From Gaiellaceae bacterium (lineage in GTDB: Bacteria; Actinomycetota; Thermoleophilia; Gaiellales; Gaiellaceae): 64,000 bases of DNA. The DNA lies in NCBI GenBank assembly GCA_036518135.1, contig DATDNT010000080.1, forward strand, positions 9,074-73,073, read 5' to 3'. Below are positions 12,761-57,247 of this stretch, piece after piece. A program made the translations under genes and the position numbers. The notes under the pieces are model-generated. The model made no database searches and was not told the origin of the DNA. It was given only the letters and a program-made list of their open reading frames with translations. Numbering within the stretch: position 1 is the first letter of the stretch; every line of letters starts with the position of its first letter.

Positions 12761-13149
12761 TCGGGCTCCGAGAACCCGAGCTTCCGGTACAGGGGATGCA
12801 TGTTCGTCGTGTGGAGGATCCAGCGGATGTGCGCGAGCCCGCTCTGCTCGACCATCTCCCGCACGAGCGCCTCGCCGAGCCCGCGCCCGCGGTACTCCTC
12901 CAGAACGTAGACGTCGGCGAGGTACACGAACGAGACGCCGTCCGTCGCGGCGCGGCAGAAGCCGATCTGCCGGTCGCCGTCGTAGAGGCCCACGACTCGG
13001 ACGGCGTCGTCGATCAACCGGTCCTGCGTCTCGCGCGGGCGGCCCGCCGCCCAGTAGCTGACCTCGCTCAGCCACCTGTGCACCTCGGCGCGGTCGATGC
13101 GCTCCTTGTCGTCGTCGAGCTCGAGCGCGTCCGCGAGGGCGCGCTTCAT
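12709..13149 (-). CDS. GNAT-family N-acetyltransferase
   Basis: 146 aa with LADVYVLEEYRGRGLGEALVREM (the acetyl-CoA Q/RxxGxG/A motif). Its 3' end overlaps the esterase 3' end by 52 nt. Confidence 0.8.
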   Translation of the reverse strand: MKRALADALELDDDKERIDRAEVHRWLSEVSYWAAGRPRETQDRLIDDAVRVVGLYDGDRQIGFCRAATDGVSFVYLADVYVLEEYRGRGLGEALVREMVEQSGLAHIRWILHTTNMHPLYRKLGFSEPDYKVMERQPTSHSSEAG

Positions 13150-13472
13150 CCGACGAGCCGCTCGCGCGCGATCTTCCCGTCGCGGATCAGGTAGACGGCG
13201 ACGTGGCGCTCCTCCTCGGGGCCGCGGCCCGAGACCGTCTCCTCCTCGACCACGAAGTCGCCGACGGTCGTCCGCCACCCTGTCCTGATCTCGATGTCGG
13301 GGTACTGCTCGAACATCGGCTGGTAGCGCTCGCGGAGCTCGTCGTGACCGCGTGCGATCACGTGGTCGTGGCCGTCCTCGATCGTCGCGTCCTCCGTGTA
13401 GCAGGCGACGAACGCGTCGACGTCCTTGTCCGCGATCGCCGCGATCACCCTGTCGACGATCGTCTCCTTCAC
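13146..13472 (-). CDS. NTF2/SnoaL-like fold protein
   Basis: 108 aa starting VDRVIAAIADKDVDAFVACYTEDATIED and ending VAVYLIRDGKIARERL. GTGA overlap with recO and ATGA overlap with the GNAT gene. Confidence 0.7.
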   Translation of the reverse strand: MKETIVDRVIAAIADKDVDAFVACYTEDATIEDGHDHVIARGHDELRERYQPMFEQYPDIEIRTGWRTTVGDFVVEEETVSGRGPEEERHVAVYLIRDGKIARERLVG

Positions 13473-14209
13473 GCGGAGAGCGTCCTCAGCCGGAACCCGC
13501 CGTGCTCCTCGTAGGAGCTCGTGATCACTGCGAGCGCGTCACGACGCGCGCGCTCGCTGAGCGCCGGTTCGTGCGCGTCGGCGAGCGGTGTCGAGAGGAG
13601 CCGCTCCACGCCCGCGATCCCGTCCGGCGACAGGCGCAGGGCCCGGCCGCCGTGCGCAGCGCAGACCGCGCCGCCGGCGCGCGCGTCGAAGCCGACGAGG
13701 CCGCCCTGCTCACCGCACTCGACGCAGCTCGTCAGGTGCGGGAGGTAGCCGGCGACCCACAGGAGCTTCAGCTGGAAGGCGAGGACGAGCGGGTCGAGCG
13801 CCGGCCGCGCCGTACCGCTCGGCGCCTCGTCGAGCGCGTCGAGGAACCGCGCGAGCGCCGTGAACGCGCGCTCGTTCGCCTCCGGCTCGCCGAAGAGGCG
13901 AAGCATCGCCTCGGCGCCGATCAGCCCGACGTCGAGCCGGTACGGCTCTTCGCGGCTCGCTCGGTGCGAGCGGAGCAGCTCGACGCCCGTGATCGTGAGG
14001 AGCTCGCCCGAGCCCTGGTGCACCATCAGCTCGACGTGAGAGAGCGGCTCGAGCCGCGCGCCGAACCGCGACTTCGTCTTGCGGACGCCCTTCGCGATTG
14101 CGCCGACGCGGCCCCGCTCCTCCGTGTACAGGTGGAGGATCCGGTCGGCCTCCCCGAACCGCATCGAGCGGAGCACGATCGCCTGCGTCTTCGTCGTCCG
14201 CCCGGCCAT
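13469..14209 (-). CDS. recO: DNA repair protein RecO
   Basis: 246 aa starting TQAIVLRSMRFGEADRILHLYTEERGRVGAIAKGVRK, with the zinc motif CVECG...VCAAH. Confidence 0.9.
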   Translation of the reverse strand: MAGRTTKTQAIVLRSMRFGEADRILHLYTEERGRVGAIAKGVRKTKSRFGARLEPLSHVELMVHQGSGELLTITGVELLRSHRASREEPYRLDVGLIGAEAMLRLFGEPEANERAFTALARFLDALDEAPSGTARPALDPLVLAFQLKLLWVAGYLPHLTSCVECGEQGGLVGFDARAGGAVCAAHGGRALRLSPDGIAGVERLLSTPLADAHEPALSERARRDALAVITSSYEEHGGFRLRTLSA

Positions 14210-14266
14210 TTGGGCCAGTCTACGGACGCCGGAGGGGGAATCCTGATCGCCTCTTCTCCGTTGTAA

Positions 14267-14533
14267 ATGGGGATGACCAAGATCCAGATGTACACGACCC
14301 GCTGGTGCGGGTACTGCGTCCGCGCGAAGGCACTGCTCGACGGGCGGGGCCTCGACTACGAGGAGATCGACCTGGGCGACGACCCTGCGTTCCGCGCGCG
14401 CCTGAACGAGCTGACGGGCGGCTGGACGGTGCCCCAGATCCTGATCGGCGGCCGTCCGATCGGCGGCTACACCGAGCTCTGGCGCCTCGATCGCGAGGGG
14501 CGCCTCGACGAGCTGCTGGACGCCGCCGCGTAG
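14267..14533 (+). CDS. glutaredoxin
   Basis: IQMYTTRWCGYCVRAKALL...VPQILIGGRPIGGYTEL. The CGYC active site and the TVPQI..GG motif are present. Confidence 0.85.
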   Translation: MGMTKIQMYTTRWCGYCVRAKALLDGRGLDYEEIDLGDDPAFRARLNELTGGWTVPQILIGGRPIGGYTELWRLDREGRLDELLDAAA

Positions 14534-15354
14534 AGCGGCTGGCAGCGCGGGCAGTACCACGTCCCGCGCCCGGCGACGCGGATCTTGTCGATCGGCGTCC
14601 CGCACCGGTCGCACGGGTCGCCGCCGCGACCGTACACCTTGAACTCGTGCTGCGCACCGCCTTCGCCGCCGTCGGGGAGGCGGTAGTCGCGGAGCGTCGA
14701 GCCCTGGCGGCGGATCCCGGCGCGGAGCGCGTCGCGGACGCCCCTGTGGAGCGCCCTCACCTCGTCGGGGTCGAGCGTCTGAGCCGGTGTGAGCGGGTGG
14801 ATCCGCGCCCGCCACAGCGCCTCGTCGGCGTAGATGTTCCCGACGCCGGCGACGGTGCGCTGGTCGAGGAGCGCCGCCTTGATCGGCGCCTTGCGCGCGA
14901 CGAGCTTCTCCGCCAGGTGCGTCGCCTTGTACGCCGCCTCGAGCGGCTCGCGGCCGACGCGGGCGTCGACGTACGCCTGCACCTCCTCCGGCTCGAGGAG
15001 CAGCCACGTCCCGAACCTCCGCACGTCGCGATAGGCGACGTCCGACGCGTCGTCTAGCGTGACAACAGCACGCCGGTGCGGGTCGTCCGGGAGCCCGTCC
15101 GTCGCGTGCAGAAACGATCCCGTCATCCGGAGGTGCACCAGCAGCGCACGCCCAGACTCGAACCGGACAATCAGATACTTGCCGCGGCGATCGACCGTCG
15201 CGACCCGCTCGCCCTCGAGCTCCCGCGCGACCTCGACGGGATCGAGCGGCCGCGTCAGGCGCGCATCGGCGATCTCCACGCGCTCGAACACCCGCCCTTC
15301 GAGCGCAGGCGCGAGACGCCGGCGCACGGTCTCCACCTCCGGCAGCTCGGGCAC
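14467..15354 (-). CDS. mutM: formamidopyrimidine-DNA glycosylase
   Basis: GTG start then PELPEVETVRR. It has H2TH and the zinc finger CDRCG..YCPRCQ. A 24-aa Ser/Arg tail runs antisense over the glutaredoxin 3' end. Confidence 0.9.
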   Translation of the reverse strand: MPELPEVETVRRRLAPALEGRVFERVEIADARLTRPLDPVEVARELEGERVATVDRRGKYLIVRFESGRALLVHLRMTGSFLHATDGLPDDPHRRAVVTLDDASDVAYRDVRRFGTWLLLEPEEVQAYVDARVGREPLEAAYKATHLAEKLVARKAPIKAALLDQRTVAGVGNIYADEALWRARIHPLTPAQTLDPDEVRALHRGVRDALRAGIRRQGSTLRDYRLPDGGEGGAQHEFKVYGRGGDPCDRCGTPIDKIRVAGRGTWYCPRCQPLYAAASSSSSRRPSRSRRQSSV

Positions 15355-15377
15355 CGCTGCACCGTAGCGGCGCGGCG

Positions 15378-16676
15378 CTAGCCGACGACCTCGAGCAGAA
15401 CGCGCCGCTCGGGCGGCGCCTCGTCGCCGATGTCGTAGGCGGCCGCGACCTCGCGAACCGCCGCCTCGGCCGTCGCGTCGTCGCGCGCGTGGATCACGGC
15501 GAGCCGCTCGCCGGCCGAGACCTCCGCCCCGCGCTTCACGTTGCAGACGATGCCGACCGCGTGGTCGACGTCGTCCTCCTTCGTGCGCCGCCCGGCCCCG
15601 AGGTGGACGGCCGCATTGCCGACACGGATGGCGTCGAGCTGCCGTACCGCGCCCGCGCGCGGCGCGGTCACGTCGCGTACGACGGGAGCCGTCGGCAGCG
15701 CCGCGTCGTCGGCCGTGCCGCCCTGCGCCTCGATCCACGCCACCCACTTCGCGTCCGCGCTGCCGTCGGCGACCGCAGCCTCGGCGCGGCGGCGGCCCTC
15801 GGCCTCGTCGATCCCGAGGTCGGAGAACGCGAGCAGCCGGGCGCAGGCGTCGAGCACGAGCTCGGTGAAGTCGGCCGGCCCGCGCCCGCGGACCGTGTCG
15901 CGCGCCTCCAGCACTTCGAGGCTGTTCCCGACGGCGGCGCCGAGCGGCTGGTCCATGTCGGTGAGGAGGCAGACGACCTCGCGACCCGCCTGGCTGCCGA
16001 GCGAGATCATCGCCTCGGCGAGCTGCCGCGCGTCGTCGATCGTCTTCATGAAGGCGCCGCTCCCGACCTTCACGTCGAGGACGATCGCCTGCGCGCCCGC
16101 GGCGAGCTTCTTCGACATGATCGACGCGGCGATCAGCGAGAGCTGGTCGACCGTCGCCGTCACGTCGCGCAGCCCGTAGAGGAGCTTGTCCGCGGGGACG
16201 AGATCGCCGGTCTGGCCGACGATCGCCGCGCCGACGTCGCGCACCTGCGCGATGAACTCGTCCAGCGTCAGCTCGGTGCGGTACCCCGGGATCGACTCGA
16301 GCTTGTCGAGCGTCCCGCCCGTGTGGCCGAGCCCGCGCCCGCTCATCTTCCCGAGCGGGACGCCGCACGCGGCGACGATCGGCGCGACGGCGAGGGAGGT
16401 CTTGTCGCCGACGCCGCCCGTCGAGTGCTTGTCGACGACCTTGCGGCCGAGCGCGTCGCTCATGTCGATCGTCTCGCCACTGCGGATCATCGCGTCCGTC
16501 AACACGTAGGTCTCGCGCGGCGACAGCCCGCGGAAGTACACGGCCATCGCGAACGCCGCCATCTGGTAGTCCGGGACCTCGCCGCGCGCGTACCCGAGGA
16601 TCAGCTCGGCGAGCTCGTCGTCCGGCAGCTCCTCGCCGTCGCGCTTGCGCTGGATGAGCTCGGCCGGCCGGATCAC
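15378..16676 (-). CDS. deoA: thymidine / pyrimidine-nucleoside phosphorylase
   Basis: 432 aa starting IRPAELIQRKRDGEEL, with VDKHSTGGVGDKTSL and SGRGLGHTGGTLDKLE. Confidence 0.9.
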   Translation of the reverse strand: MIRPAELIQRKRDGEELPDDELAELILGYARGEVPDYQMAAFAMAVYFRGLSPRETYVLTDAMIRSGETIDMSDALGRKVVDKHSTGGVGDKTSLAVAPIVAACGVPLGKMSGRGLGHTGGTLDKLESIPGYRTELTLDEFIAQVRDVGAAIVGQTGDLVPADKLLYGLRDVTATVDQLSLIAASIMSKKLAAGAQAIVLDVKVGSGAFMKTIDDARQLAEAMISLGSQAGREVVCLLTDMDQPLGAAVGNSLEVLEARDTVRGRGPADFTELVLDACARLLAFSDLGIDEAEGRRRAEAAVADGSADAKWVAWIEAQGGTADDAALPTAPVVRDVTAPRAGAVRQLDAIRVGNAAVHLGAGRRTKEDDVDHAVGIVCNVKRGAEVSAGERLAVIHARDDATAEAAVREVAAAYDIGDEAPPERRVLLEVVG

Positions 16677-17383
16677 CGCGCCGCCACGAACATCACTCCG
16701 CCCGTCCGGACGACGAACGGCAACGGGACGTCTTCGGGAACCGGTCGCGTCTCGACCATGAGCGAGTCGCGGTAGTCGACGAGCCGCTGACGGTCGCGGA
16801 CGGTCGCCGTGCCCTCGACGTCCGTCCGCTCGACCGTGCGGAAGTGCCGGAGGAGGATCTCCTCCGCGTTCCCGGCGTTGAAGGTCAGGGTGCGGTCGTC
16901 CCAGGGGTACCCGACCAGGTCGCGCAGCTCGGCAAGATGGTGGAGAGCGCTCGTGTTGCAGACGAGGTGGCCGCCGGGAGCGAGCACGCGGGCGATCTCG
17001 GCGAGGCCCCGGTCGAGGTCTGCCACGTGGTACAGCATCCAGGCGGCGACGACAAGATCGAATGTCCCGTCGTCGAACGGAAGCTCCTGCACGTCGCCGA
17101 CCTCGGCGCGGATGCCGCGGGCGCGGGCGAGCTCGACCATGCGCTCCGACTGGTCGACCATCGTCACGTCCGCTTGGAGCTCGTCCTGCATGCGCTGCGA
17201 CAGCCATCCCTCGCCGCCGCCGACCTCGAGCACGCGCTGGGGCGCAAGCGAGGCGATCGCCTCCCACAGGACGTCCGCCGGATGCGGGCCCGTCGTTTCC
17301 TCGTAGAGCGCCTGGCGCGCCCGCAGGTTCCGCTCCGTCGCGTACTGCTCCCGCACGCTCGCCGTGTCGTTCAGCGGCCTCAC
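16673..17383 (-). CDS. class I SAM-dependent methyltransferase, paralog 1
   Basis: 236 aa. Motif I is RVLEVGGGEGW. Also present: DVQELPFDDGTFD, AAWMLYHV, RVLAPGGHLV. GTGA overlaps at both ends. Confidence 0.8.
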   Translation of the reverse strand: MRPLNDTASVREQYATERNLRARQALYEETTGPHPADVLWEAIASLAPQRVLEVGGGEGWLSQRMQDELQADVTMVDQSERMVELARARGIRAEVGDVQELPFDDGTFDLVVAAWMLYHVADLDRGLAEIARVLAPGGHLVCNTSALHHLAELRDLVGYPWDDRTLTFNAGNAEEILLRHFRTVERTDVEGTATVRDRQRLVDYRDSLMVETRPVPEDVPLPFVVRTGGVMFVAAR

Positions 17384-18102
17384 GCGGCCCTCTTCGCCGC
17401 GAAGACGGAAACTCCGCGCCGCGCCCGGAACGGCTCGTCGACGGCCGCCGGCAGGTTGCCGACGAAGGGCGACATCGAGATCGAGGCGCGGACGTAGTCC
17501 TCGACGTCGCGGCGCGACGCGAACGCGATCTCGTCGTCGACGTCGATCCGCCGCACCTCGGCGAACGCGACGGCCAGGACCTCCGCCCCGTTCTCGCGCG
17601 TGAAGGTCGAGGGCGACGGGCCGCTGTCGACGAGCTCGCGCAGCTCCCGGAGGTGGAACGCCGAGTTCGTGATCGCGACCAGCAGCCCGCCGGGTTGCAG
17701 CACCCGGGCGAGCTCGCCGAGCGCGCGCGGGATGTCGGGCACGTGGTAGAGCATCCACGCCGCGACGGCGGCGTCGAACTCGCCGTCGCGAAACGGAAGC
17801 GCCTGTACGTCGGCGACACGCGCGTCGACGCCGCGCTCGCGCGCGAGCTCGACCATGCGCGGGGACAGGTCGATCGCAACGACTTCTGCATGCACCTCGT
17901 CACGGATGCGCACCGCGAGCTCGCCCCAGCCGCACCCGACCTCGAGCACGCGGCGCGGCGCCGCCGCCGCGAGCGCTCGCAGCGCGGGCTCACGCGCGTC
18001 GGCTCCCGTCCCCGCGCCGGTGAACGCCGCGGCGCGCCGGCGCAGACGCGCGTCGTCCGCGTACTCGCGCGCGACGAGCTCAGGGTCGTCGAGGCGCGTC
18101 AC
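17380..18102 (-). CDS. class I SAM-dependent methyltransferase, paralog 2
   Basis: 240 aa with RVLEVGCGWGE, DVQALPFRDGEFD, AAWMLYHV, RVLQPGGLLV. GTGA overlaps at both ends. Confidence 0.8.
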   Translation of the reverse strand: MTRLDDPELVAREYADDARLRRRAAAFTGAGTGADAREPALRALAAAAPRRVLEVGCGWGELAVRIRDEVHAEVVAIDLSPRMVELARERGVDARVADVQALPFRDGEFDAAVAAWMLYHVPDIPRALGELARVLQPGGLLVAITNSAFHLRELRELVDSGPSPSTFTRENGAEVLAVAFAEVRRIDVDDEIAFASRRDVEDYVRASISMSPFVGNLPAAVDEPFRARRGVSVFAAKRAA

Positions 18103-18833
18103 CGCTTCTCGGCCACGAAGACCGTGTGGCAGGTGCGCACGCGCACGGGCTCGGTGAAGTCGGGGACGTGCGCCGCCATGTAGGCACGCGTCATGTTCGC
18201 CGCCACGAACTTCCGCATGTCCTCCGGCGTGCGGAAGACGACGACGCCGTTCGCCTCGCGCGCCTCCACGTGGGCGAAGTACGGCCCGAGACGTTCCGCG
18301 CCGTTCGCGCTCGAGAAGCTGAGCTTGCGCTCGCGCGGCTTTCCGAGGAAATCCCAGAGGTCGCTCATGTTCTCGTCGCTCAGCGTCCCGGCGACGAGCC
18401 GCCCGCCCGGCCGGAGCACGCGTGCGCACTCGGCGATCGCGCGGTCGAGCCCGTGGACGTGGTAGAGCACCCAGCCGGCGACGACGCAGTCGAACTCGCC
18501 GTCGCCGAACGGCAGCTCCTGCACGTCGGCGATCTGGGCGCGAACGCCCTGCTGCTTCGTCAGCTCGACCATCCGCTGCGACGTGTCGATCGCGACGACG
18601 TCGCACCCGAGCTCGCGCTGCATCCGCACGGCGTTCGCCCCGGCGCCGACGCCGACCTCGAGCACGCGCTGCGGCGCGAACTCGCGCACCGCGTCGAACA
18701 GCACCTCCTCGGCATTCTCGCCCTCGATCAGGCGACGGTAGATCGCGTTGCGCTGCTCGAGCCGCTCCTCGCTCGCGAACTCCCAGCGGACGAGGAGCTC
18801 GGTGTCGAGCGGGAACTCGCCCGGGTCGGACAT
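18099..18833 (-). CDS. class I SAM-dependent methyltransferase, paralog 3
   Basis: 244 aa with RVLEVGVGAGA, DVQELPFGDGEFD, AGWVLYHV, RVLRPGGRLV. The ATG shares 1 nt with the deoB stop (TGATG). Confidence 0.8.
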   Translation of the reverse strand: MSDPGEFPLDTELLVRWEFASEERLEQRNAIYRRLIEGENAEEVLFDAVREFAPQRVLEVGVGAGANAVRMQRELGCDVVAIDTSQRMVELTKQQGVRAQIADVQELPFGDGEFDCVVAGWVLYHVHGLDRAIAECARVLRPGGRLVAGTLSDENMSDLWDFLGKPRERKLSFSSANGAERLGPYFAHVEAREANGVVVFRTPEDMRKFVAANMTRAYMAAHVPDFTEPVRVRTCHTVFVAEKR

Positions 18834-20005
18834 CAGGGCGCGACGAACGCGGTTCCGGGCACGCCGCGCGGCGCCGACTTGCCGCCGAGCCAGGCGTTGA
18901 CCGTCGCGCCCACGTCGGCGAACTCGCCGTCCTCGAGCACGCGGCCCGCGGCGTTCCGGCCCTCGACGTAGGCGAGGAGCAGCGCGTGCTCCCGGCTGTG
19001 ATCCGTCGACGGGGTCGTCGGGTCGCAGCCGTGGTCCGAGGTGAGGATGAAGAGGTCGTTGGGGCGGAGCGCGTCGAGCAGGTCGGGCAGCCGCCGATCG
19101 AAGTCCTGCAGGCACCGGTGGAAGTTCACAGGGTCGTTGCGATGCCCCCACAACGAGTCCGTCTCGACGAGATTCGTGAAGACGAGGCCGTCGTCGACCG
19201 ACCGCAGCAGTTCCTCCGTCCGCTGGATCCCGTCGACGTTCGACTTCGTCGGGAATTCCTCGTCCACGTCCTGGTGCGCGAAGATGTCGCCGATCTTCCC
19301 GACGCCGTAGACCTTGTGGCCCGCGTCGCGGACGAGCGACAGGTAGTTCGGCCGCTTCGGCTCGAGCGAGAAGTCGTGCCGGCTCGCGCCGTCGCGCTCG
19401 TACGCGCCCGGCGCGCCGACGAACGGCCGCGCGATCACGCGGCCGACGGCGTGCTTTCCGGTGAGGAGTTCGCGGGCGATGCGGCACGCGTCGTACAGCT
19501 CCTCGAGCGGCACCGTCTCCTCGTGCGCCGCGATCTGGAAGACCGAGTCCGCGCTCGTGTAGACGATCCACTTCCCCGTGCGCTGGTGCTCTTCGCCGAG
19601 CTCCTCGATGATCTCCGTCCCGCTCGCCGGCCGGTTGCCGAGGACGCCGCGCCCGGTGCGGTTCATGAACGGGTCGAGCAGCTCGTCCGGGAACCCGAGC
19701 GGGTACGTCGGCATCGCCTGCGGCGTCACGACGCCCATCAGCTCCCAGTGCCCGGTCGTCGTGTCCTTGCCCTTCGAGCGCTCGACCAGGCGGCCGGCGA
19801 TCGCCGGCGCGCCCGGCTGTGGGGCGCAGCCCTCCAGCGGCTCGATGTTCCCGAGGCCGAGCGCCTCGAGCGTCGGCAGGTCGAGGCCGCCGACGGCGCG
19901 CGCGACGTTCGCGAGCGTGTTCGACCCCTCGTCGCCGAACTCGGCGGCGTCGGGCAGCTCGCCTGCACCGACTGCGTCCAGGACGATCACACAGGCGCGA
20001 CTCAT
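18833..20005 (-). CDS. deoB: phosphopentomutase
   Basis: 390 aa starting CVIVLDAVGAGELPDA..GSNTL, with LTSDHGCDPT. This is the typical DeoB metalloenzyme pattern. Confidence 0.92.
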   Translation of the reverse strand: MSRACVIVLDAVGAGELPDAAEFGDEGSNTLANVARAVGGLDLPTLEALGLGNIEPLEGCAPQPGAPAIAGRLVERSKGKDTTTGHWELMGVVTPQAMPTYPLGFPDELLDPFMNRTGRGVLGNRPASGTEIIEELGEEHQRTGKWIVYTSADSVFQIAAHEETVPLEELYDACRIARELLTGKHAVGRVIARPFVGAPGAYERDGASRHDFSLEPKRPNYLSLVRDAGHKVYGVGKIGDIFAHQDVDEEFPTKSNVDGIQRTEELLRSVDDGLVFTNLVETDSLWGHRNDPVNFHRCLQDFDRRLPDLLDALRPNDLFILTSDHGCDPTTPSTDHSREHALLLAYVEGRNAAGRVLEDGEFADVGATVNAWLGGKSAPRGVPGTAFVAP

Positions 20006-20025
20006 CTCCGGGCTATCCTAGAGCC

Positions 20026-20160
20026 GTGCACACCGTGCTCGGACTCATCGGGATCGCCGCGTTCATCGTCGTGATCGTCTCCCTCGCGGCAGGCGTCACA
20101 TGGCTCGTCGTGCGCCTGAGCCCGTCGCCCGACAAGAAGAAGAAGGCCGCGGCCGCCTAG
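20026..20160 (+). CDS. 44-aa single-TM peptide with KKKK tail
   Basis: VHTVLGLIGIAAFIVVIVSLAAGVTWLVVRLSPSPDKKKKAAAA. 40 of 44 codons end in G/C. It fills the ald-deoB gap on the opposite strand and shares a CTAG stop with ald. Confidence 0.45.
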   Translation: MHTVLGLIGIAAFIVVIVSLAAGVTWLVVRLSPSPDKKKKAAAA

Positions 20161-21278
20161 ACGGCCGTCGCCGGCAGCGCGTCGGCGAGCGGCGTGTAGT
20201 CCAGGTCGTGCGCCTCGGCGACCGCCCGGTAGGTGATCTTCCCGTCCAGGACGTTGACGCCCTTCGCGAGGGCCGGATCGGCGTCGACGGCGGCGCGCAG
20301 CCCGTGGTCGGCGATCGCCTCGACGTACGGCAGCGTCGCGTTCGTGAGCGCCTTCGTCGACGTGATCGGCACCGCGCCGGGCATGTTGGCGACGCAGTAG
20401 TGCGTGACGCCGTCGACGACGTACACGGGATCGGCGTGCGTCGTCGCGTGTGAGGTCTCGAAGCAGCCGCCCTGGTCGATCGCCACGTCGACGACGACCG
20501 CGCCCTCCTTCATGCCGGTGATCATCTCGCGCGTCACGAGCTTCGGCGCGAGCGCGCCCGGGATCAGGACCGCGCCGATCACGAGGTCCGCCTCGGCGAC
20601 CGACGCCGCGAGCTGCAGGCTCGAGCTCATCAGCAGCGTCACGCGGCCCGACAGGATCTCCTCGAGGTGGCGCATGCGGTCGATCGACCGCTCGAGAATC
20701 GTCACCTGGGCGCCGAGCCCGAGCGCCATGATCGCCGCGTTGTAGCCGACGACGCCGCCCCCGACGATCACGACCTTGCCGGGCGCGACGCCCGGTACGC
20801 CGCCGAGCAGCAGCCCGCGTCCGCCCACCGGCTTCTCGAGGAAGTACGCGCCCGCCTGCGACGCGAGGCGGCCGGCGACCTCCGACATCGGCGCGAGGAG
20901 CGGCAGCGTCCGCGCGACCTCGACCGTCTCGTACGCGACCGCGGCGATCCCCGAGTCGACGAGCGCGCGCGTCAGCGGCTCGTCCGCGGCGATGTGCAGG
21001 TACGTGAAGAGGACGAGCCCCTCGCGCAGCCGCGGGTACTCCGACGCGATCGGCTCCTTGACCTTGAGAACCATCTCCGACGACTCCCACACGTCGTCGA
21101 CCGACACGATCTTCGCGCCGACGCGCTCGTAGTCGGAGTCGGCGAACGCGCTGCCGACACCCGCGCCGCGCTCGATCGAGACGTCGTGGCCGCGGTTGAT
21201 CAGCTCGAGCGCGCCGGCCGGCGTCAGCGCGACGCGGTACTCGTCCGGCTTGATCTCCTTCGCGACACCGATCTTCAT
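20157..21278 (-). CDS. ald: alanine dehydrogenase
   Basis: 373 aa starting MKIGVAKEIKPDEYRVALTP, with the NAD motif VVIVGGGVVG. Confidence 0.92.
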   Translation of the reverse strand: MKIGVAKEIKPDEYRVALTPAGALELINRGHDVSIERGAGVGSAFADSDYERVGAKIVSVDDVWESSEMVLKVKEPIASEYPRLREGLVLFTYLHIAADEPLTRALVDSGIAAVAYETVEVARTLPLLAPMSEVAGRLASQAGAYFLEKPVGGRGLLLGGVPGVAPGKVVIVGGGVVGYNAAIMALGLGAQVTILERSIDRMRHLEEILSGRVTLLMSSSLQLAASVAEADLVIGAVLIPGALAPKLVTREMITGMKEGAVVVDVAIDQGGCFETSHATTHADPVYVVDGVTHYCVANMPGAVPITSTKALTNATLPYVEAIADHGLRAAVDADPALAKGVNVLDGKITYRAVAEAHDLDYTPLADALPATAV

Positions 21279-21291
21279 GCCGCGCGAGAGC

Positions 21292-21756
21292 CTACCTGCG
21301 TAGGAGAAGCAGAAGACCGCAGAGCGTCTTCGCATCCTCCACATCCGCGAGGAGCTCCGGCACGTCTGCGAGCGGGACGCGGACGAGCTCGATGTCTTCC
21401 GACCCCTCGGGGTGCGCCTCGCCGGCTTCGAGCCCGGTGGCGATGAACAGGTGCATCTTCTCGTCGCAGAACCCGGGCGTCGTGAAGAACGTCGCCGCCT
21501 CGACCCACTGACCGCCGTGGAGCCCGGTCTCCTCCGCGAGCTCGCGCTTCGCGGTGTCGAGCGGCGACTCGCCGTCCTCGACGCCGCCCGCCGGGAGCTC
21601 GAGCAGCTTCCCGCCGGCCGGCACGCGCTCCTGCCGGACGAGCGTCACGCCGTTGTCGGCGTCGACGGCGACGATCGCCACCGACCCGCCGTGCACCACG
21701 ACGTCCTTCCCGTCGCGGCGCTCGACCGAGAACAGCGGTCCCTCGTACAGCGGCAC
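21292..21756 (-). CDS. NUDIX hydrolase (ADP-ribose pyrophosphatase-like)
   Basis: The Nudix box GGVEDGESPLDTAKRELAEETG is present. Confidence 0.85.
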   Translation of the reverse strand: MPLYEGPLFSVERRDGKDVVVHGGSVAIVAVDADNGVTLVRQERVPAGGKLLELPAGGVEDGESPLDTAKRELAEETGLHGGQWVEAATFFTTPGFCDEKMHLFIATGLEAGEAHPEGSEDIELVRVPLADVPELLADVEDAKTLCGLLLLLRR

Positions 21757-21773
21757 GGCATGATCTTGCCGCC

Positions 21774-22775
21774 GTGGTTCGCGTCGTAATCGTCACACCC
21801 GTCGAGGCGGAGCTCGTCGAGCGCCTATCCGCCGTCGACGACCGTCTCGAGATCGTGTTCGAGCCGGAGCTCCTCCCGCCGCCGCGCTACCCGTCGGACC
21901 ACCGCGGGGACGAGTCCTTCCGCCGCTCGCCCGAGCAGGAGGCGCGCTTCCGCGACCTGATCGCGTCCGCAGAGGTGCTCTACGGCATTCCCGGCGAGCA
22001 GCCCGAGCTGCTGGCGGAGGCGGTGCGGTCGGCGCCGGGACTGCGGTTCGTGCAGGCGACCGCGGCCGGTGCCGGTCAGCAGGTCGCGGCCGCGGCGCTC
22101 ACGGAGGAGGAGCTCGGGCGCGTCGCATTCTCGAGCGCGAGCGGCGTGCACGCGACGCCGCTCGCGGAGTGGAGCATCTTCGGCGCGCTCGCGATCACGA
22201 AGGGCCTCCCCCGCCTGCTCCGCGACGCGCGCGAGCGGCGGTGGGAGCACTACGCGGTCTCGGAGCTCCGCGGGCGGACGATGCTCGTCGTCGGGCTCGG
22301 CGCGATCGGGAAGGAGGTCGCCCGGCTGGCCGAGGCGTTCGGGATGCGCGTCCTCTCCGTCCGCCGCCGGGAGGGCGATCTCGACGAGCTCCTGCCGCAG
22401 GCGGACGTCGTCGTCGTGACGCTTCCCCTCACCGACGAGACGCGCGGGATGATCAGCCGCGAGCGCATCGCGCGCATGCGGCACGGCGCCGCGTTCGTCA
22501 ACGTCGGCCGCGGCGCGGTCGTCGACGAGGACGCACTCGTCGAGGCGCTCCGCGCGGGGCGGCTCGCGGGAGCGGCGCTCGACGTGTTCGCCGAGGAGCC
22601 GCTCCCGGCCGACAGCCCGCTCTGGGAGCTCGAGAACGTGATCGTCAGCCCGCACACCGCCGCGCTCTCTCTGCACGAGAACGAGCGGATCGTCGAGCTC
22701 TTCGCCGACAACCTGCGGCGCTACCTCGCCGGCGAAGAGCTCAGGAGCCGCGTGCGGACGTCGGCGTTCTACTGA
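21774..22775 (+). CDS. D-isomer-specific 2-hydroxyacid dehydrogenase family protein
   Basis: Contains GRTMLVVGLGAIGKEVARL, then FVNVGRGAVVDEDAL, then SPHTAA. Confidence 0.85.
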   Translation: MVRVVIVTPVEAELVERLSAVDDRLEIVFEPELLPPPRYPSDHRGDESFRRSPEQEARFRDLIASAEVLYGIPGEQPELLAEAVRSAPGLRFVQATAAGAGQQVAAAALTEEELGRVAFSSASGVHATPLAEWSIFGALAITKGLPRLLRDARERRWEHYAVSELRGRTMLVVGLGAIGKEVARLAEAFGMRVLSVRRREGDLDELLPQADVVVVTLPLTDETRGMISRERIARMRHGAAFVNVGRGAVVDEDALVEALRAGRLAGAALDVFAEEPLPADSPLWELENVIVSPHTAALSLHENERIVELFADNLRRYLAGEELRSRVRTSAFY

Positions 22776-49913: not shown

Positions 49914-50571
49914 CGGCCGAGCGCATGACCTCGAGCGGTGGCTCGAGCCCCGTCCAGAGGCGGAAGCTCGCCGCGCCCTGCCGCACGAGCGCCTCGCGTC
50001 CGTCGACGACGGTGCAGCCCGCCGCGCGCGCGGCCGCGACGAGTGCGGTCTCCGCGTCGCCGTAGGCGAGGTCGACGACCGTCTGCGCCGGCTCGAGCTC
50101 GACGAGCACCTCGTCGCGAACGGGGGTCGCGTTCACGACGAGGTCGCAGCCCGCCGCGTCGGGCGGCCATGTGCCGCTCCGCGAGAAGACCCGCGTCTCC
50201 GCCGGGAGCGCCGGCGCGAGCGCGGCCGCCGCGCCGCCGGCGCCGATCACGCATGCCCGCTCCGCCCTGATCCCGGCAACGATCTCCTTGTCCGTGTTGA
50301 ACCCGAGGACGCGCCCGTCGCGGAACACGAGCGTGTTGACTGCTTCGCCGTCCGCCTCGTCGCACGCAGCGACGACGGCGCGCTTGTGCGGGATCGTGAC
50401 GTTCGCGCCCTCGAACCCGAGCGCCCGCAGCGCACGCACCGCCTCGACGACGTCGTCGACGTCGAAGGCGACGTACCTCCAGTCGAGCCCGCGCGCGGCG
50501 AACGCGGCGTTCTGCATGCGCGGAGACAGCGAGTGCGCGACGGGATGTCCGAGGAGAGCGACGTACTTCAC
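49903..50571 (-). CDS. aroE: shikimate dehydrogenase (short form, 222 aa)
   Basis: Starts GHPVAHSLSPRMQNAAF and contains GANVTIPHK and NTD. The GTG shares 1 nt with the mltG stop. Confidence 0.85.
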   Translation of the reverse strand: MKYVALLGHPVAHSLSPRMQNAAFAARGLDWRYVAFDVDDVVEAVRALRALGFEGANVTIPHKRAVVAACDEADGEAVNTLVFRDGRVLGFNTDKEIVAGIRAERACVIGAGGAAAALAPALPAETRVFSRSGTWPPDAAGCDLVVNATPVRDEVLVELEPAQTVVDLAYGDAETALVAAARAAGCTVVDGREALVRQGAASFRLWTGLEPPLEVMRSAVTT

Positions 50572-51473
50572 TAACAGCCGTAGCCGTGCTCGCACTCGTA
50601 CCGCTGGAACGCGGACGCGCTCGCCGTGAAGAAGTTGTGCACCTTGTCGGGCTTGCGCACGAAGTAGAGGTAGTTCACGTGCGCGGGATGCGCCGCCGCC
50701 TGGATCGATGCGAGGCCCGGGTTCGCGATCGCGGTCGGCGGCAGGCCGGTGTGGAGCCGCGTGTTGTACGGCGTCGGGTTCGCGAGCTGCGACTGGTGGA
50801 TCGACTCGGTACCCGGGATGTTCAGCCCATAGCGCAGCGTCGCGTCGATGCCGAGCGGCATGCCCTGGTGCAGCCGGTTGTAGATGACGGCCGAGACGAG
50901 CGGGCGCTCGTCGGGCGCAACGGTCTCGCGCTCGATCATCGACGCGATCGTGAGCACGTCGTAGGGCGTCAGGTTCTTCGACTTCGCGTACGCGAGGTTG
51001 ACGCTCTTCCAGTTCGTGCAGAACGCCTGCACCTGCTGTTGGACGAGCTGCCGCGACGTCGTCGTCGCGAGGAAGTCGTACGTCGCCGGGAACAGGAACC
51101 CCTCCACCTTCGTCTGCCGGTGCGGGCGCAGGCACGGCACCGAGAGCGTGCGCGACGCGACCAGGTACTGCTTCGCATCGAGCGCGATGTGCTTGCCGCT
51201 CTTTCGGTGCGCGATCTTGGCGACGGCGCCGACGCGCTCAGCCATCTGCGCGCGCGTGTAGCCCTCGGGAAAGATGATCCGGAACGGCTTCGGGGGCGGC
51301 GGCGCGGTCGTCGTCGGAGGCGGCGCCGCCTTGTGACGGATGTGCGGGACGGCGACCGCGATCGCGGCGCCCGCCGCGACGAGTGCCACGATGACGAGCG
51401 CGAGCGCGACGAGCCGCCTTCGCCGCACCTGCTCGGGCGTCGGGCCGCGGCGCTGCCGCGGCACCGGCATCAT
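50571..51473 (-). CDS. mltG: endolytic murein transglycosylase MltG (YceG-like)
   Basis: N-terminal TM span, then EGFLFPATYDF, ASMIERE, and YNTRLHTGLPPTAIANPG. Confidence 0.88.
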   Translation of the reverse strand: MMPVPRQRRGPTPEQVRRRRLVALALVIVALVAAGAAIAVAVPHIRHKAAPPPTTTAPPPPKPFRIIFPEGYTRAQMAERVGAVAKIAHRKSGKHIALDAKQYLVASRTLSVPCLRPHRQTKVEGFLFPATYDFLATTTSRQLVQQQVQAFCTNWKSVNLAYAKSKNLTPYDVLTIASMIERETVAPDERPLVSAVIYNRLHQGMPLGIDATLRYGLNIPGTESIHQSQLANPTPYNTRLHTGLPPTAIANPGLASIQAAAHPAHVNYLYFVRKPDKVHNFFTASASAFQRYECEHGYGC

Positions 51474-51844
51474 CGGCGGGCGCTCTGCCACTGCAGGAAG
51501 CTCTCCAGGAGATGGGCCGCGGCGCGCGCGTCGTCGCCGCCCGCGAGGACGGACGTGAACCGCTCGTCGTACGTCTCGACGGGCATCGACACGGCGCCGC
51601 GCAATCGTTCGACGAACGCGTCCGTGGCGCGCGCCTGCTCGCCATGCTCGCCCTTCAGCGTCAACGGCATCCCGACGACCACGAGCCCCGGCTCTTCCGC
51701 GCGGATCACGTCCAGAAGCTTCGCAAAGCCGGCGTCGGTCGCCGCCTTCCGAACCGTCGTGACGGGTCGCACGAGCGTCGCGGTCGGGTCGGAGACGGCG
51801 ATGCCCGTCCGTGCGGAGCCGAAGTCGAGTGCGAGAACCTTCAA
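51470..51844 (-). CDS. ruvX: Holliday-junction resolvase-like nuclease RuvX (YqgF)
   Basis: TTG start (TTGA overlap with alaS). It reads LKVLALDFGSARTGIAVSD and contains VVVGMPLTLKGEHGEQ. Confidence 0.88.
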   Translation of the reverse strand: MKVLALDFGSARTGIAVSDPTATLVRPVTTVRKAATDAGFAKLLDVIRAEEPGLVVVGMPLTLKGEHGEQARATDAFVERLRGAVSMPVETYDERFTSVLAGGDDARAAAHLLESFLQWQSARR

Positions 51845-54357
51845 ACGAGAGCGGTGAGCTTGTCCCGCGCGGCCTCGAGCGCCGCGCGCACGGCTTCGAC
51901 GTTCTTCCCGCCCGCCTCGGCGAGGTTCGCGCGACCGCCGCCGCCGCCGCCGATGATCGACCCGAGCTCGCGCACGACCGCGACTGCGTCGACGCCCTCG
52001 ACCGACTTGTCGACGTTGACGACGAGCGAGACCTTCCCCTCGTCCGCCGAGGCGACCGCGACGGCGAGCGCGTTCTCCTGCCGCCGCAGCCGGTCGGAGA
52101 GGTCCCGCAGCACCCCGCCGTTCCTGACCTCGGCGACGAACACCTGCCCCTGCCGGTCCTGCCACACGATGTCGGGGCCCGCGGCATCAGCCTTCGGCTT
52201 CTTCGCCTCGCGGCGCACCTGCTCGAGCTCCGCGCGCACCGCCTCGAGCTCGCGGCTCCGCCCTTCGAGCACGCTCCACCCCTCGCCGGCCGTGACCGCT
52301 TCGATCCGCCGGGTACCGGACGCCACCGCCTGCTCGCGGAGGATTACGAACGGACCGATCTCCGCGGTCGAGCGGACGTGCGTGCCGCCGCACAGCTCCT
52401 TCGAGTACTCGCCGATCTCGACGACGCGCACCTCGTCGCCGTACTTCTCGCCGAACAGCATCATCGCGCCGAGCTTGCGCGCCTCATCGATCGGCGTCAC
52501 ATACGTGCGCACCGGGATCGCCTCGAACACCTTTTCGTTGACGATCCTCTCGACGCGGGCGCGCTCCTCCGGCGACAGCGCCGCGCCGTGCGTGAAGTCG
52601 AATCGCAGCTTGTCGGGGCGCACGGCCGACCCCGCCTGCTTCACGTGGTCGCCGAGCACATCGCGCAGCGCCTGGTGCAGCAGGTGCGTCGCGGTGTGGT
52701 TCGCCATCGTCGGGAAGCGCGTCGACCAGGCGACGGTCGCGCGGACGCGATCGCCGCTCGCGAAGCCCGAGCCCTCGAAGACGAGCGCCTGGTCGTCGCC
52801 GATCTTGTAGGCGGAGCGCAGGACCGCCTCCGCCCCGGTCTCCTCGTGCACGAGCACGCCGGTGTCCGTGATCTGGCCGCCGCTCTCGGCGTAGAAGGGC
52901 GACTCGCGCAACTTGCACAGGAACATGCCGTCGCCGAGACCGTCGACCGCGCCCGCCTGCGTGAGAACGTCGGTCTTCGAGTAGCCGACGAACTCCGACT
53001 GGAAGCCGGCCGCCTGCGCGAACTCGGCGGCGCGCTGCAGCTCGCTCTTGTCGCCGCCCGCGCGCGACACGACGCGATGCTCCTCCATCAGCTGCCGGAA
53101 GCCGTCGACGTCGACCGGCTGTCCACGCTCCTCCGCGAGCTCCTCGGTCAACTCGATCGGGAAGCCGTACGTCGCCGCGAGAGCGAACGCGTCGTCGGCG
53201 GTGATCGCGTCCTTGCCGGCGAGCTCGTCGAACACCTTCTGGCCGCGCGCGAGCGTCTCCGAGAAGCGCTCCTCCTCGAGCCGCCACACGCGCTCGATGT
53301 CTTCCGCGTGCTCGGAGAGGAGCGGGTACGCGTCGCCCATCTGCGCCACGACGACGCGCGAGAGGCGATGCGAGGCCTCGAGGCCGATGCGGCGCGCCTG
53401 GTGGATCGCGCGGCGGAGGAGCCGGCGACAGACGTAGCCACGGCCCTCGTTCGACGGCTCGATCCCCTCCGCGATCAGGAACGACGCGGCGCGGCCGTGG
53501 TCTGCGAGGACGCGATGCGCGCGGCGGGAGACGTCGTCCTGCTCGTAGGGCGTGCCCGACTCCGCCTCGATCCAGTCCATGATCTGGCGGAACCCGTCGG
53601 TGTCGAACACCGACGAGACGTCCTGCAGCACGCACGCGGTGCGCTCGATGCCGTTGCCGGTGTCGACGTTCGCCGCCGGCAGCTTCACGAGCACGTTCCC
53701 CGGCTGGAGGTCGTATTCCATGAACACGAGGTTGTAGATCTCCATGATCCGGTCGCAGTGCCCCGGTCCGCAATCGGGGTCGCCGCAGGCGTACTTCTCG
53801 CCGCGGTCGTAGAAGATCTCCGAGCACTGCCCGCAGGGCCCGATCTCGCCGGACTTCCAGAAGTTGTCGGAGCCGAGGCGCACGATCCGCTCCTGCGGGA
53901 TCCCCTTCGCGAGCCATGCGTCGATCGCGACGGTGTCCTCTTCGAGCCCGAGCATCGGGTCGCCCTCGTGCACGGTCGCCCACAGCCGCTCCGGCTCGAG
54001 CTCGAGCACGTCCGTCACCCAGTCCCAGGCGAAGTCGACGGCGCCTTCCTTGAAGTAGTCGCCGAACGAGAAGTTGCCCATCATCTCGAAGAAGGAGCAG
54101 TGGCGGTCTGTGCGCCCGACCTCCTCGAGGTCGGTGTCCTTGCCGCCCGCGCGCAGGCACGGCTGCACGCTGACGACGCGGTCGCGCGGCGGCTCCTTCG
54201 TACGCAGGAAATACGGCTTGAACTGCTGCATGCCGGCGATGATGAAGAGCGTCGACTGGTCCTCCGCCGGCGGGATCAGCGAGTGCGGCGGCACGCGGAG
54301 ATGCCCACGCTCCTCGTAGAAGCGCTGGAACGCCTCGCGCAGCTCGTTCGTCGTCAT
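51841..54357 (-). CDS. alaS: alanine--tRNA ligase
   Basis: 838 aa starting MTTNELREAFQRFYEERGH, with FEMMGNFSFGDYFK and the editing-domain motif HTATHLLH..CGGTHV. Confidence 0.95.
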   Translation of the reverse strand: MTTNELREAFQRFYEERGHLRVPPHSLIPPAEDQSTLFIIAGMQQFKPYFLRTKEPPRDRVVSVQPCLRAGGKDTDLEEVGRTDRHCSFFEMMGNFSFGDYFKEGAVDFAWDWVTDVLELEPERLWATVHEGDPMLGLEEDTVAIDAWLAKGIPQERIVRLGSDNFWKSGEIGPCGQCSEIFYDRGEKYACGDPDCGPGHCDRIMEIYNLVFMEYDLQPGNVLVKLPAANVDTGNGIERTACVLQDVSSVFDTDGFRQIMDWIEAESGTPYEQDDVSRRAHRVLADHGRAASFLIAEGIEPSNEGRGYVCRRLLRRAIHQARRIGLEASHRLSRVVVAQMGDAYPLLSEHAEDIERVWRLEEERFSETLARGQKVFDELAGKDAITADDAFALAATYGFPIELTEELAEERGQPVDVDGFRQLMEEHRVVSRAGGDKSELQRAAEFAQAAGFQSEFVGYSKTDVLTQAGAVDGLGDGMFLCKLRESPFYAESGGQITDTGVLVHEETGAEAVLRSAYKIGDDQALVFEGSGFASGDRVRATVAWSTRFPTMANHTATHLLHQALRDVLGDHVKQAGSAVRPDKLRFDFTHGAALSPEERARVERIVNEKVFEAIPVRTYVTPIDEARKLGAMMLFGEKYGDEVRVVEIGEYSKELCGGTHVRSTAEIGPFVILREQAVASGTRRIEAVTAGEGWSVLEGRSRELEAVRAELEQVRREAKKPKADAAGPDIVWQDRQGQVFVAEVRNGGVLRDLSDRLRRQENALAVAVASADEGKVSLVVNVDKSVEGVDAVAVVRELGSIIGGGGGGRANLAEAGGKNVEAVRAALEAARDKLTALV

Positions 54358-54429
54358 GGCGCGCGCCACGGCGGACAGTGTACGGACGGCCATCTGGACT
54401 TCTTGCGCCGAAGGTGAGACCGTACGGGC

Positions 54430-55665
54430 GTGGGACGGCTCGCCTTCACGGGAGCGGTGGCGGTCGCTCTCGCGCTCGCGACGGGGGCGGGGTCTCGCAC
54501 GGACGTCTACCCGGGGCAGAACGGGCGGATCGCGATCCAGGACGTCGAGCGCGGCGCGAGCCAGTATGCGCCCTCGAACATCTACCTCTTCTCCCTGGGC
54601 GCCTACGGCTACTTCATCCAGCTGACCCACGGCAAGGCGTTCGACGCGAACCCGACGTGGTCGCCGGACGGAAAGGCGATCGCGTTCGACTCGAATCGCG
54701 GGAACGCGAGCGTCGACGACCACGACCTGTGGCTGATCCGCCCCGATGCGACCGGCCTGCACCGGATCACGTCGGGCCCGGCCTCGGACATGGACCCGAC
54801 CTGGTCGCCGGACGGCAAGAGGATCGCGTTCTTCAGCGACCGCGCCGGCAACGACGACATCTGGGTCGCGAACGCCGACGGCAGCGGCCTGACACAGCTC
54901 ACGACGGACAAGCGGCTCGACTGGGATCCCGCGTGGTCGCCGGACGGGACGCAGATCGCGTTCGGGAGCTACCGCACCGGCGCCGAGCGGCTATGGGTGA
55001 TGAACGCCGACGGCTCGAACCAGCACATGCTGACGAGCGGGCCCGGCCAGGACCGGCACGCAGCCTGGTCGCCCGACGGTACGCGCATCGCGTTCGACTC
55101 GTCGCGTGGCGGCAACTTCGACATCTACGTGATGAAGGCGGACGGCACGAACGTGAAGCAGCTCACGAAGGACGCGCCGATCGACGCGCGGCCCGCATGG
55201 TCGCCGGACGGACGGTGGCTGATGTACCAGCGCGAGCTCGGCTCGAACGGCCGCGAGCTCTACACGATGCGCCCCGACGGCGCGAACCAGAGCCAGTACT
55301 CCGAGGGGGGCTCGAATTGGGCGACGTCCCCCGACTGGCAGCGGGTCGCGCGACCGGACCGCTGCAACGGGATCGGCACGGCGTACGCCGACGAGATCGA
55401 GTTCTTCGGGAACAACGACGTCCTGTGCGGGCTCGGGGGCAACGACTTCATCAAGGCGGGCGCGGGCAACGACGTCGTCGAAGGCGGCCCCGGCAACGAC
55501 ACGATCGACGGCGGGCCTGGCAATGACCGACTGAGCGGCGGGCCAGGCAACGACGTGATCGACGGCGGCCCGGGGCGCGACCGCATCTCGTGCGGCCCCG
55601 GCCGTGACGTCGTGATCGCGCCCGCAGGCGACGTCGTCGCCCGGGACTGCGAGATCCGGCGCTAG
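54430..55665 (+). CDS. secreted TolB-like beta-propeller (PD40 repeats) with C-terminal GGxGxD calcium-binding-type repeats
   Basis: GTG start and a signal peptide. There are five or more repeats of P(T/A)WSPDG..IAF. The C-terminus reads GGNDFIKAGAGNDVVEGGPGNDTIDGGPGNDRLSGGPGNDVIDGGPGRD. Confidence 0.8.
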   Translation: MGRLAFTGAVAVALALATGAGSRTDVYPGQNGRIAIQDVERGASQYAPSNIYLFSLGAYGYFIQLTHGKAFDANPTWSPDGKAIAFDSNRGNASVDDHDLWLIRPDATGLHRITSGPASDMDPTWSPDGKRIAFFSDRAGNDDIWVANADGSGLTQLTTDKRLDWDPAWSPDGTQIAFGSYRTGAERLWVMNADGSNQHMLTSGPGQDRHAAWSPDGTRIAFDSSRGGNFDIYVMKADGTNVKQLTKDAPIDARPAWSPDGRWLMYQRELGSNGRELYTMRPDGANQSQYSEGGSNWATSPDWQRVARPDRCNGIGTAYADEIEFFGNNDVLCGLGGNDFIKAGAGNDVVEGGPGNDTIDGGPGNDRLSGGPGNDVIDGGPGRDRISCGPGRDVVIAPAGDVVARDCEIRR

Positions 55666-55669
55666 TTCG

Positions 55670-56431: not shown

Positions 56432-56789
56432 TCGCGACTCTCTTCGTCAGGCGCACCCACTCTCCGTCCACGTGCACGTCCTCGACGGTCGAGTCGAGCA
56501 CGCGGCGGAGGCCGAGGCCCGGCCCGGACTCGTGCTCGATCTGGTCGAGCACGCGGCTCGTCAGCGGCCCGATCACCGTCTCGAGCTCGCCGTCGCGGAG
56601 GCACATCCGGACGGTGATGTCGCCGGCGGTCGGATCCGTCGCGTCGAGCACGGAGTCGAGCGCGAGCTGCAGGTCCTCGAGGTTCTCGATCGTCAGGTCG
56701 AGCCGCACCGCGAGGCCGCCGAGCACCAGGTGCGCGACACGGTGGAAGTCGGGCTCGCGCGGGAGAGTGAGCGTGATCTCGTCAGCCAT
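56424..56789 (-). CDS. RsbW-like anti-sigma factor with degenerate ATP-binding motifs
   Basis: 121 aa: ITLTLPREPDFHRVAHLVLGGLAVRLDLTIENLEDLQLALDSVLDA...GPGLGLRRVLDS. 8-nt overlaps at both gene junctions. Confidence 0.55.
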   Translation of the reverse strand: MADEITLTLPREPDFHRVAHLVLGGLAVRLDLTIENLEDLQLALDSVLDATDPTAGDITVRMCLRDGELETVIGPLTSRVLDQIEHESGPGLGLRRVLDSTVEDVHVDGEWVRLTKRVASG

Positions 56790-57237: not shown

Positions 57238-57247
57238 CGCGAGAAGC

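Follow-up and report, generated by a model that had tools for sequence, protein, structure and literature searches.

Methyltransferase genes in a variable slot between deoB and deoA of Gaiellales

Three paralogous genes for S-adenosylmethionine (SAM)-dependent methyltransferases (MTs) lie between deoB and deoA in the Gaiellaceae bacterium assembly GCA_036518135.1. The DNA analyzed comprises 64,000 nt of contig DATDNT010000080.1 (positions 9,074 to 73,073 of the forward strand) and is called the window in the following. On its minus strand, positions 15378-20005 hold five back-to-back genes in the order deoB, MT3, MT2, MT1 and deoA. We favour, with moderate confidence, the reading that the MTs are accessory small-molecule methyltransferases in a variable slot of an otherwise ordinary deoB-deoA (pdp)-mutM operon. 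Their position would thus reflect inherited synteny and not a dedicated pathway of nucleoside methylation. A preceding sequence-only reading of the locus had proposed an undescribed methylation route for a nucleobase, nucleoside or pentose phosphate. The anatomy on which it was built holds, and gene order, strand, coordinates, the TGATG junction and the three GTGA junctions were exact on re-reading. The functional proposal, in contrast, did not withstand the comparison with relatives, in which the MT genes are optional and repeatedly lost, are part of an order-wide synteny and occupy a second slot elsewhere. The five genes are:

deoB, 18833..20005, minus strand, phosphopentomutase of 390 amino acids (NCBIfam NF003766, E 8.8e-143, 475.8 bits against a cut-off of 256; Pfam Metalloenzyme)
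MT3, 18099..18833, minus strand, class I SAM-dependent methyltransferase of 244 amino acids (Pfam Methyltransf_11, E 9e-24, 84.4 bits)
MT2, 17380..18102, minus strand, class I SAM-dependent methyltransferase of 240 amino acids (Pfam Methyltransf_11, E 1.8e-26, 93.1 bits)
MT1, 16673..17383, minus strand, class I SAM-dependent methyltransferase of 236 amino acids (Pfam Methyltransf_11, E 7.5e-24, 84.6 bits)
deoA/pdp, 15378..16676, minus strand, pyrimidine-nucleoside (thymidine) phosphorylase of 432 amino acids (TIGR02644, 537.7 bits against 409.05; NF004490, 537.3 against 269)

Distribution of the methyltransferase genes in relatives

Relatives were sampled with the MTs as queries, taking one genome per GTDB species and the best 80 loci, onto which the window proteins were mapped. 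The record labels were actinobacterial in 79 cases (Gaiellaceae, Gaiellales, Thermoleophilia or broader) and Verrucomicrobiota in one. The MT was found in the deoB-deoA slot in 73 of the 80 loci, within the order (nudix)-ald-deoB-MT-deoA-mutM. Most of these deo-linked loci carried one MT and a minority two; three copies, as in the window, were present in L002 and L003 alone. The copies were combined in different ways, with MT1 alone in L067, L069 and L075, an MT3-like copy alone in L008 and L011, MT3 with MT1 in L001 and L004, and MT2 with MT1 in L055, L068 and L070-L072. The locus labelled Verrucomicrobiota (L064, JBLMYA010000075.1) displayed the ald-deoB-MT-deoA-mutM block typical of Gaiellales, its proteins being 58-79% identical to those of the window, and is probably a mis-binned contig.

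The MT-based scan could find MT-containing loci alone, and a second scan was therefore made with DeoB on metagenome contigs, many of them short, whose neighbouring genes were mapped. A locus was taken as informative when its sequence ran on for more than 900 nt beyond deoB (n = 64, DeoB 81-93% identical to that of the window), and the presence or absence of an MT was scored at the deo slot for each locus. In 27 of the 64 loci deoB was followed directly by deoA, so that the pair also exists without an MT; 22 loci contained one MT, nine contained two, and in six neither an MT nor deoA adjoined deoB. On the DeoB tree the MT-free loci did not group together but fell into about ten places. The gap between deoB and deoA measured -1 to 75 nt in 26 of 28 loci without a mapped MT (the 27 loci plus L137) and 310 and 334 nt in the other two. 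The C-terminal third of an MT is still encoded in the 310-nt gap of L135 (5749-6060; 52% identity to L042_1, E 5e-21), and a truncated MT3-like fragment lies between deoB and deoA in L133 (5605-5970). The scattered MT-free loci together with these remnants indicate that the MT is optional in the slot, has been lost repeatedly and varies in number from zero to three. The linkage to deo genes seen in the window does recur in relatives, so that this check did not go against the sequence-only reading.

A single clade (L113, L124, L136, L138, L143 and L155) has mutM directly after deoB, with both the MT and the phosphorylase gene missing from the locus. L138 is a shorter contig outside the informative set, and five of the six loci with neither gene show this deoB-mutM arrangement.

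Open reading frames of 666-669 amino acids that run from the MT into deoA were present in L036, L052 and L079. True MT-DeoA fusion proteins would be Rosetta-stone evidence for a shared function. We rejected them as assembly or frameshift artefacts because L036 retains the normal ...VFVCEP-GTGA junction with a frameshift just upstream, and all three loci come from metagenome-assembled genomes (MAGs) of the MFD series. Apparent MT-MT fusion frames in MAGs of this series are likewise artefacts, and protein P0237 is a garbled product of the same kind. These MAGs call for caution when they are mined for gene fusions.

Synteny and a second slot

The gene order around the MTs extends well beyond the deo genes. 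Relative L081 shows the order recN, pyrG, M20 peptidase, aldo-keto reductase, 2-hydroxyacid dehydrogenase, nudix, ald, deoB, MTs, deoA, mutM, recO and GNAT, and the window carries the same gene set. The gene ald is found upstream of deoB in most related loci and mutM after deoA in nearly all of them; we know of no tie of ald to nucleoside metabolism. Given that such unlinked neighbours are equally syntenic, the position of the MTs is not evidence of a shared function. The MTs are linked to deo genes within one order only.

The seven loci of the MT-based scan without deo genes (L017, L026, L028, L030, L061, L073 and L080) place the MT in another block, mnmA-antisigma-sigma factor-MT-alaS-ruvX-mltG. 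These sigma-alaS MTs form one paralog clade which is sister to the MTs of the deo slot, with six of the seven placed by the tree. In L028 the MT overlaps the sigma factor gene by 4 nt. The window contains the same mnmA-to-mltG block at 50500-58500, with a different gene in the slot and on the strand opposite to the block:

PD40/RTX-repeat beta-propeller gene, 54430-55665, plus strand, 411 amino acids, in the sigma-alaS slot of the window

Beyond the syntenic lineage no deo linkage was found, neither in the sigma-alaS clade nor for the more distant relatives P0257, P0189, P0230 and P0217. The surroundings of these four genes contain APH-type kinases, MFS and ABC exporters, a phosphoenolpyruvate-utilising enzyme and a beta-lactamase-family gene; P0257 comes from a Streptosporangiaceae MAG. 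APH-family genes lie near P0257 and P0230. The metagenomic protein P0259 (507 amino acids, on one short contig) combines an APH_6_hur aminoglycoside/hydroxyurea-resistance kinase domain with an MT of the wider family, and P0180 (515 amino acids, metagenomic) is a tandem MT-MT fusion of a more distant branch. The association with APH proteins is too thin to serve as a substrate clue for the deo-linked clade, and we keep it as a weak lead towards small-molecule or antibiotic-type acceptors for the wider family.

Age and divergence of the paralogs

MT1 and MT2 are 46% identical to each other and 42-44% identical to MT3. All three share the motifs RVLEVGxGxG, DVQxLPFxDGxFD, AxWxLYHV and RVLxPGGxLV, as the sequence-only reading had noted when it called them paralogs. 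In neighbour-joining trees, calculated from BLOSUM distances and without support values, MT1, MT2 and MT3 represent separate orthogroups with members in other genomes; orthologs of MT3 are found in L001-L004. Because each copy has its own orthologs elsewhere the duplication is old, which agrees with the earlier view that it was not recent.

The residues of the SAM site were examined in 102 family sequences, the three window copies and 99 relatives (MT1 numbering). G55, G57, G59, D77, R132 and G138 are invariant in all 102 sequences, and W115, H119 and T144 are present in 101. The motif I signature GxGxG and the acidic residue that closes strand 2 (D77) are intact in all three window MTs. With these residues conserved, all three copies look able to bind SAM, and each probably works as an active enzyme in its own right. 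The core (residues 48-145) shows 57-66% identity between orthogroups. The N-terminal helices, the cap regions and the last strands reach 16-46% between and 42-74% within orthogroups, a pattern that fits paralogs with different acceptors. For the cap regions by themselves the values are 50-72% within and 16-46% between orthogroups. The MTs diverge about twice as fast as their neighbours; in comparison with L002, DeoB is 92%, DeoA 81% and the MTs 69-70% identical.

A recent horizontal insertion of the MT genes was rejected, since their G+C content (0.71-0.74) and their G+C content at third codon positions (GC3, 0.92-0.96) equal those of the neighbouring genes, orthologs exist in relatives, and no mobile-element genes were found near them.

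Overlapping gene junctions

The deoB stop codon TGA (18835-18833) and the MT3 start codon ATG (18833-18831) share the A in TGATG. The following start and stop codons overlap in GTGA, at 18102-18099 for MT3/MT2, 17383-17380 for MT2/MT1 and 16676-16673 for MT1/deoA. This tight coupling had been read as a sign of stoichiometric co-production. In the window, however, overlaps of 4 or 1 nt occur in 19 of 48 same-strand neighbour pairs, about 40%, functionally unrelated pairs included, a count based on approximate gene calling from GC3, which is 0.86-0.98 in all coding sequence of the window. Unrelated genes overlap in L081 as well, where genes were called independently, for example recO/GNAT and M20 peptidase/aldo-keto reductase. 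Junctions of this frequency make the apparent welding of the five genes ordinary for this genome. Moreover, tandem duplication of a unit running from GTG to TGA regenerates the junction, and the three GTGA overlaps should hence not be counted as separate events. The overlap of stop and start codons makes it likely that the MTs are co-transcribed with deoB and deoA.

Family and fold of the methyltransferases

Pfam recognizes generic class I domains alone in the three proteins (Methyltransf_11, _25, _23 and _31), with Methyltransf_11 (PF08241, gathering cut-off 21.2 bits) and Methyltransf_25 above their cut-offs. In the NCBIfam scan every specific model remained far under its cut-off, among them UbiE/MenG, BioC, the DVU_1556 family, RlmA and ArsM. 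TIGR01934 (UbiE/MenG) scored 58.7, 67.7 and 63.0 bits against 158.35, with model positions of about 28-145 out of 223 matched. TIGR02072 (BioC malonyl-ACP O-methyltransferase) reached 60.1, 59.7 and 69.5 bits against 184.95, and NF008300 (RlmA 23S rRNA G745/G748 N1-methyltransferase) 37.4 and 35.2 bits against 303. The MTs resemble the UbiE/MenG quinone C-methyltransferases in the SAM-binding core, where Pfam Ubie_methyltran and TIGR01934 match weakly. They differ from them in that the SAM-binding half alone is matched, under the TIGR01934 cut-off, and in that no quinone-biosynthesis genes are neighbours; bio genes were likewise absent from the 20 kb examined. Sequence and profile searches of the PDB gave matches that mainly cover the SAM-binding core. 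The 119 homologs of MT2 among the matches listed (67-80% identity) carry just the automatic names 'SAM-dependent methyltransferase' or 'UbiE'.

The AlphaFold2 model of MT1 (mean predicted local distance difference test, pLDDT, 89.4; predicted template modelling score, pTM, 0.87) is a single-domain, seven-strand Rossmann-like methyltransferase. The strands comprise residues 50-54, 72-77, 92-95, 108-113, 134-145, 183-195 and 223-235; they are accompanied by three N-terminal helices and two cap insertions (residues 146-182 and 198-222). An extra N-terminal domain, such as the zinc-binding RNA-recognition domain of RlmA, was not seen in this model. Foldseek comparison with the PDB returned template modelling (TM) scores of 0.55-0.65 at 15-25% identity for all matches, which included YcgJ, TM1293, RlmA(I), GtmA/TmtA, RoqN, BioC, AtmM/RebM, MitM and phosphoethanolamine MTs. 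The top matches are class I MT structures except for SpnF, a [4+2]-cyclase of the same fold.

The closest known enzymes are solved small-molecule MTs of the Methyltransf_11 group, namely YcgJ of B. subtilis (1xxl), TM1293 of Thermotoga (1vlm), the sugar O-methyltransferases RebM/AtmM (3bus, 6uv6), MitM (8zc7), BioC (8x8j) and the thiol MTs GtmA/TmtA (5jgk, 5egp). With these the window MTs have in common the length of about 240 amino acids, the single-domain seven-strand Rossmann-like fold, an acceptor site covered by N-terminal helices and cap loops, motif I (GxGxG), an acidic residue that follows strand 2 and a histidine that follows strand 4. The low identity and TM scores set them apart, and their caps match none of the solved enzymes specifically, so that no acceptor can be transferred by homology. 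A specific family assignment was thus attempted by NCBIfam, PDB sequence and profile searches and Foldseek, and each gave generic matches alone; neither UbiE/MenG, BioC or RlmA nor a known function unrelated to nucleosides, which would have spoken against the sequence-only reading, could be assigned. As sequence, profile and structure matches are all generic, the MTs appear to belong among the small-molecule enzymes of Methyltransf_11, from which no acceptor specificity can be transferred. When a profile built from the three paralogs was run against 1.84 billion representative proteins, just 341 clusters (50% identity) came up at E<=1e-30, a number which marks the full-length family as small. 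The MTs would accordingly form a small, lineage-centred class I subfamily of Methyltransf_11.

Flanking genes and operon context

The genes next to the cluster and the only non-coding stretch upstream of it are:

mutM/fpg, 14467..15354, minus strand, formamidopyrimidine-DNA glycosylase of 295 amino acids (Pfam Fapy_DNA_glyco, H2TH, zf-FPG)
ald-deoB gap, 20006..20156, minus strand, 151 nt, the sole non-coding stretch upstream of the cluster (from the gene coordinates)
ald, 20157..21278, minus strand, alanine dehydrogenase (Pfam AlaDh_PNT_N, AlaDh_PNT_C)

Gene starts were taken from alignments and GC3. The deoA product scored under the cut-off of the E. coli-type model TIGR02643 (437 against 570.7). 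mutM starts 23 nt downstream of deoA and is probably part of the same transcription unit. The 151-nt gap between ald and deoB is a candidate promoter region. Scans of both strands of 13000-22500 gave no match to a sigma-70-like promoter or intrinsic terminator consensus, and are uninformative at about 72% G+C. In the surrounding 20 kb neither deoC, deoD, cdd nor a nucleoside transporter gene was found; the stretch is of a housekeeping kind.

A glutaredoxin gene (14267-14533, plus strand; Pfam Glutaredoxin, E 4e-20, CGYC motif) is convergent to mutM, and the 3' ends of the two open reading frames overlap by 67 nt. The last 22 or so residues of the mutM frame, after the zf-FPG domain, are antisense to the C-terminus of the glutaredoxin. 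In L081 recO follows directly after mutM, with no gene called between them.

Classical deo/pdp operons are represented by deoCABD of E. coli and dra-nupC-pdp of Bacillus. The locus resembles them in the co-orientation of deoB with the gene for a pyrimidine-nucleoside phosphorylase, the two being directly adjacent in 27 of 64 related loci. Unlike these operons, the window contains no deoC, deoD or nupC within 10 kb, the operon runs on into mutM, and many Gaiellales genomes have one to three MT genes between deoB and deoA. A literature search found nothing on the deoB-MT-deoA arrangement or on deo genes of Gaiellales, an order represented here almost wholly by MAGs. The flanking genes are ordinary, and the class to which the MTs belong is known and very large; their subfamily within it is uncharacterised.

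Possible roles of the methyltransferases

The MTs may be functionally tied to the deo genes and methylate a nucleobase, nucleoside or pentose phosphate that is made or used by DeoA or DeoB, for example to detoxify or mark unusual bases. Such an accessory branch could have been dropped by some lineages and would not require three steps. The 73 of the 80 best family loci that lie in the deoB-deoA slot, the persistence of the arrangement over deep MT divergence and the tight junctions in most loci speak for this tie, as does the one clade without deoA, which is also without the MT. We nevertheless consider it unlikely. deoA and the MT were lost together just once, and one deletion could account for it. 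The bare deoB-deoA pair is kept in 27 of the 64 DeoB-sampled loci, and loss of the MT is repeated. The unrelated ald and mutM are just as syntenic as the MTs, the sister paralog clade resides between a sigma factor gene and alaS, the four more distant relatives are not linked to deo genes, and no structural neighbour found by Foldseek is a nucleobase or nucleoside MT. Its more elaborate form, a lineage-specific accessory methylation in which every paralog would act on its own base or analogue among those that the pyrimidine-nucleoside phosphorylase releases or consumes, strikes us as quite improbable.

The occurrence of both slots in housekeeping surroundings, beside mutM/recO or alaS/sigma, could also mean that the MTs modify a macromolecule, be it rRNA, tRNA or protein. 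RlmA(I), the 23S rRNA G745 methyltransferase, is among the top Foldseek matches (TM 0.63), and NCBIfam gave weak matches to RlmA and Erm(32). The RlmA scores of 35-37 bits are, however, remote from the cut-off of 303, and the proteins, with 236-244 amino acids and, in the MT1 model, a single domain, have no Zn-finger or other RNA-binding extension. Fast divergence, changes in copy number and frequent loss are moreover atypical of rRNA and tRNA modification enzymes, which renders such a role very doubtful. Least credible is an obligate unit of the three MTs, be it to methylate one substrate three times in succession or to form a hetero-oligomer whose stoichiometry would be fixed by translational coupling, the two options put forward by the sequence-only reading. 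The three contiguous, overlapping genes of the window, L002 and L003 fit such a unit. It is contradicted by the copy numbers of zero to three and by the occurrence of every paralog combination in relatives, among them MT1 or an MT3-like copy alone, MT3 or MT2 with MT1, or none. All copies retain complete SAM sites, so that none looks like a non-catalytic partner, and overlapping junctions are a general feature of this genome.

Our preferred explanation remains that of accessory methyltransferases for small molecules, placed in an operon slot of variable content. Two findings weigh against it: the main MT clade has kept the deoB-deoA slot while diverging to about 45-50% identity, and the tandem copies have long been retained. 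A real, if accessory, tie to nucleoside metabolism would be compatible with both.

For accessory MTs in an inherited slot, the following course can be envisaged. Early members of the order probably had one MT. In the subclade of the window the MT1, MT2 and MT3 orthogroups would have arisen by tandem duplication, and repeated deletion elsewhere would have led to the range of zero to three copies. Transcription would start upstream of deoB and proceed through deoA and probably mutM, with ribosomes terminating and reinitiating where stop and start codons overlap. SAM would be bound through motif I, D77 and D97. A small acceptor may be held under the N-terminal helices and cap loops and then methylated; H119 and Y14/Y118 are residues that we take, by analogy with RebM-type and PMT-type enzymes, as candidates for catalysis or positioning. 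The acceptors may be related and yet different for each copy, as in the O-, N- or S-methyltransferases of natural products and xenobiotics.

Significance

As the evidence stands, the value of this locus is mainly cautionary. In compact, high-G+C genomes whose gene order is strongly conserved, tight packing and a conserved position within one order do not establish a shared function, and it was the sampling by a flanking gene, not by the gene of interest, that exposed the insert as optional. The locus further offers a clear case of birth and death in an uncharacterised MT subfamily, with zero to three copies, a relic and divergence of the cap regions. Were bases or nucleosides indeed their substrates, the MTs would constitute a new accessory branch of nucleoside catabolism in the Gaiellales, which are abundant and almost uncultured soil actinobacteria. 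A different base or analogue for each paralog would imply a nucleoside-pool hygiene or salvage chemistry undescribed in bacteria, with a copy number tuned to the range of substrates in soil.

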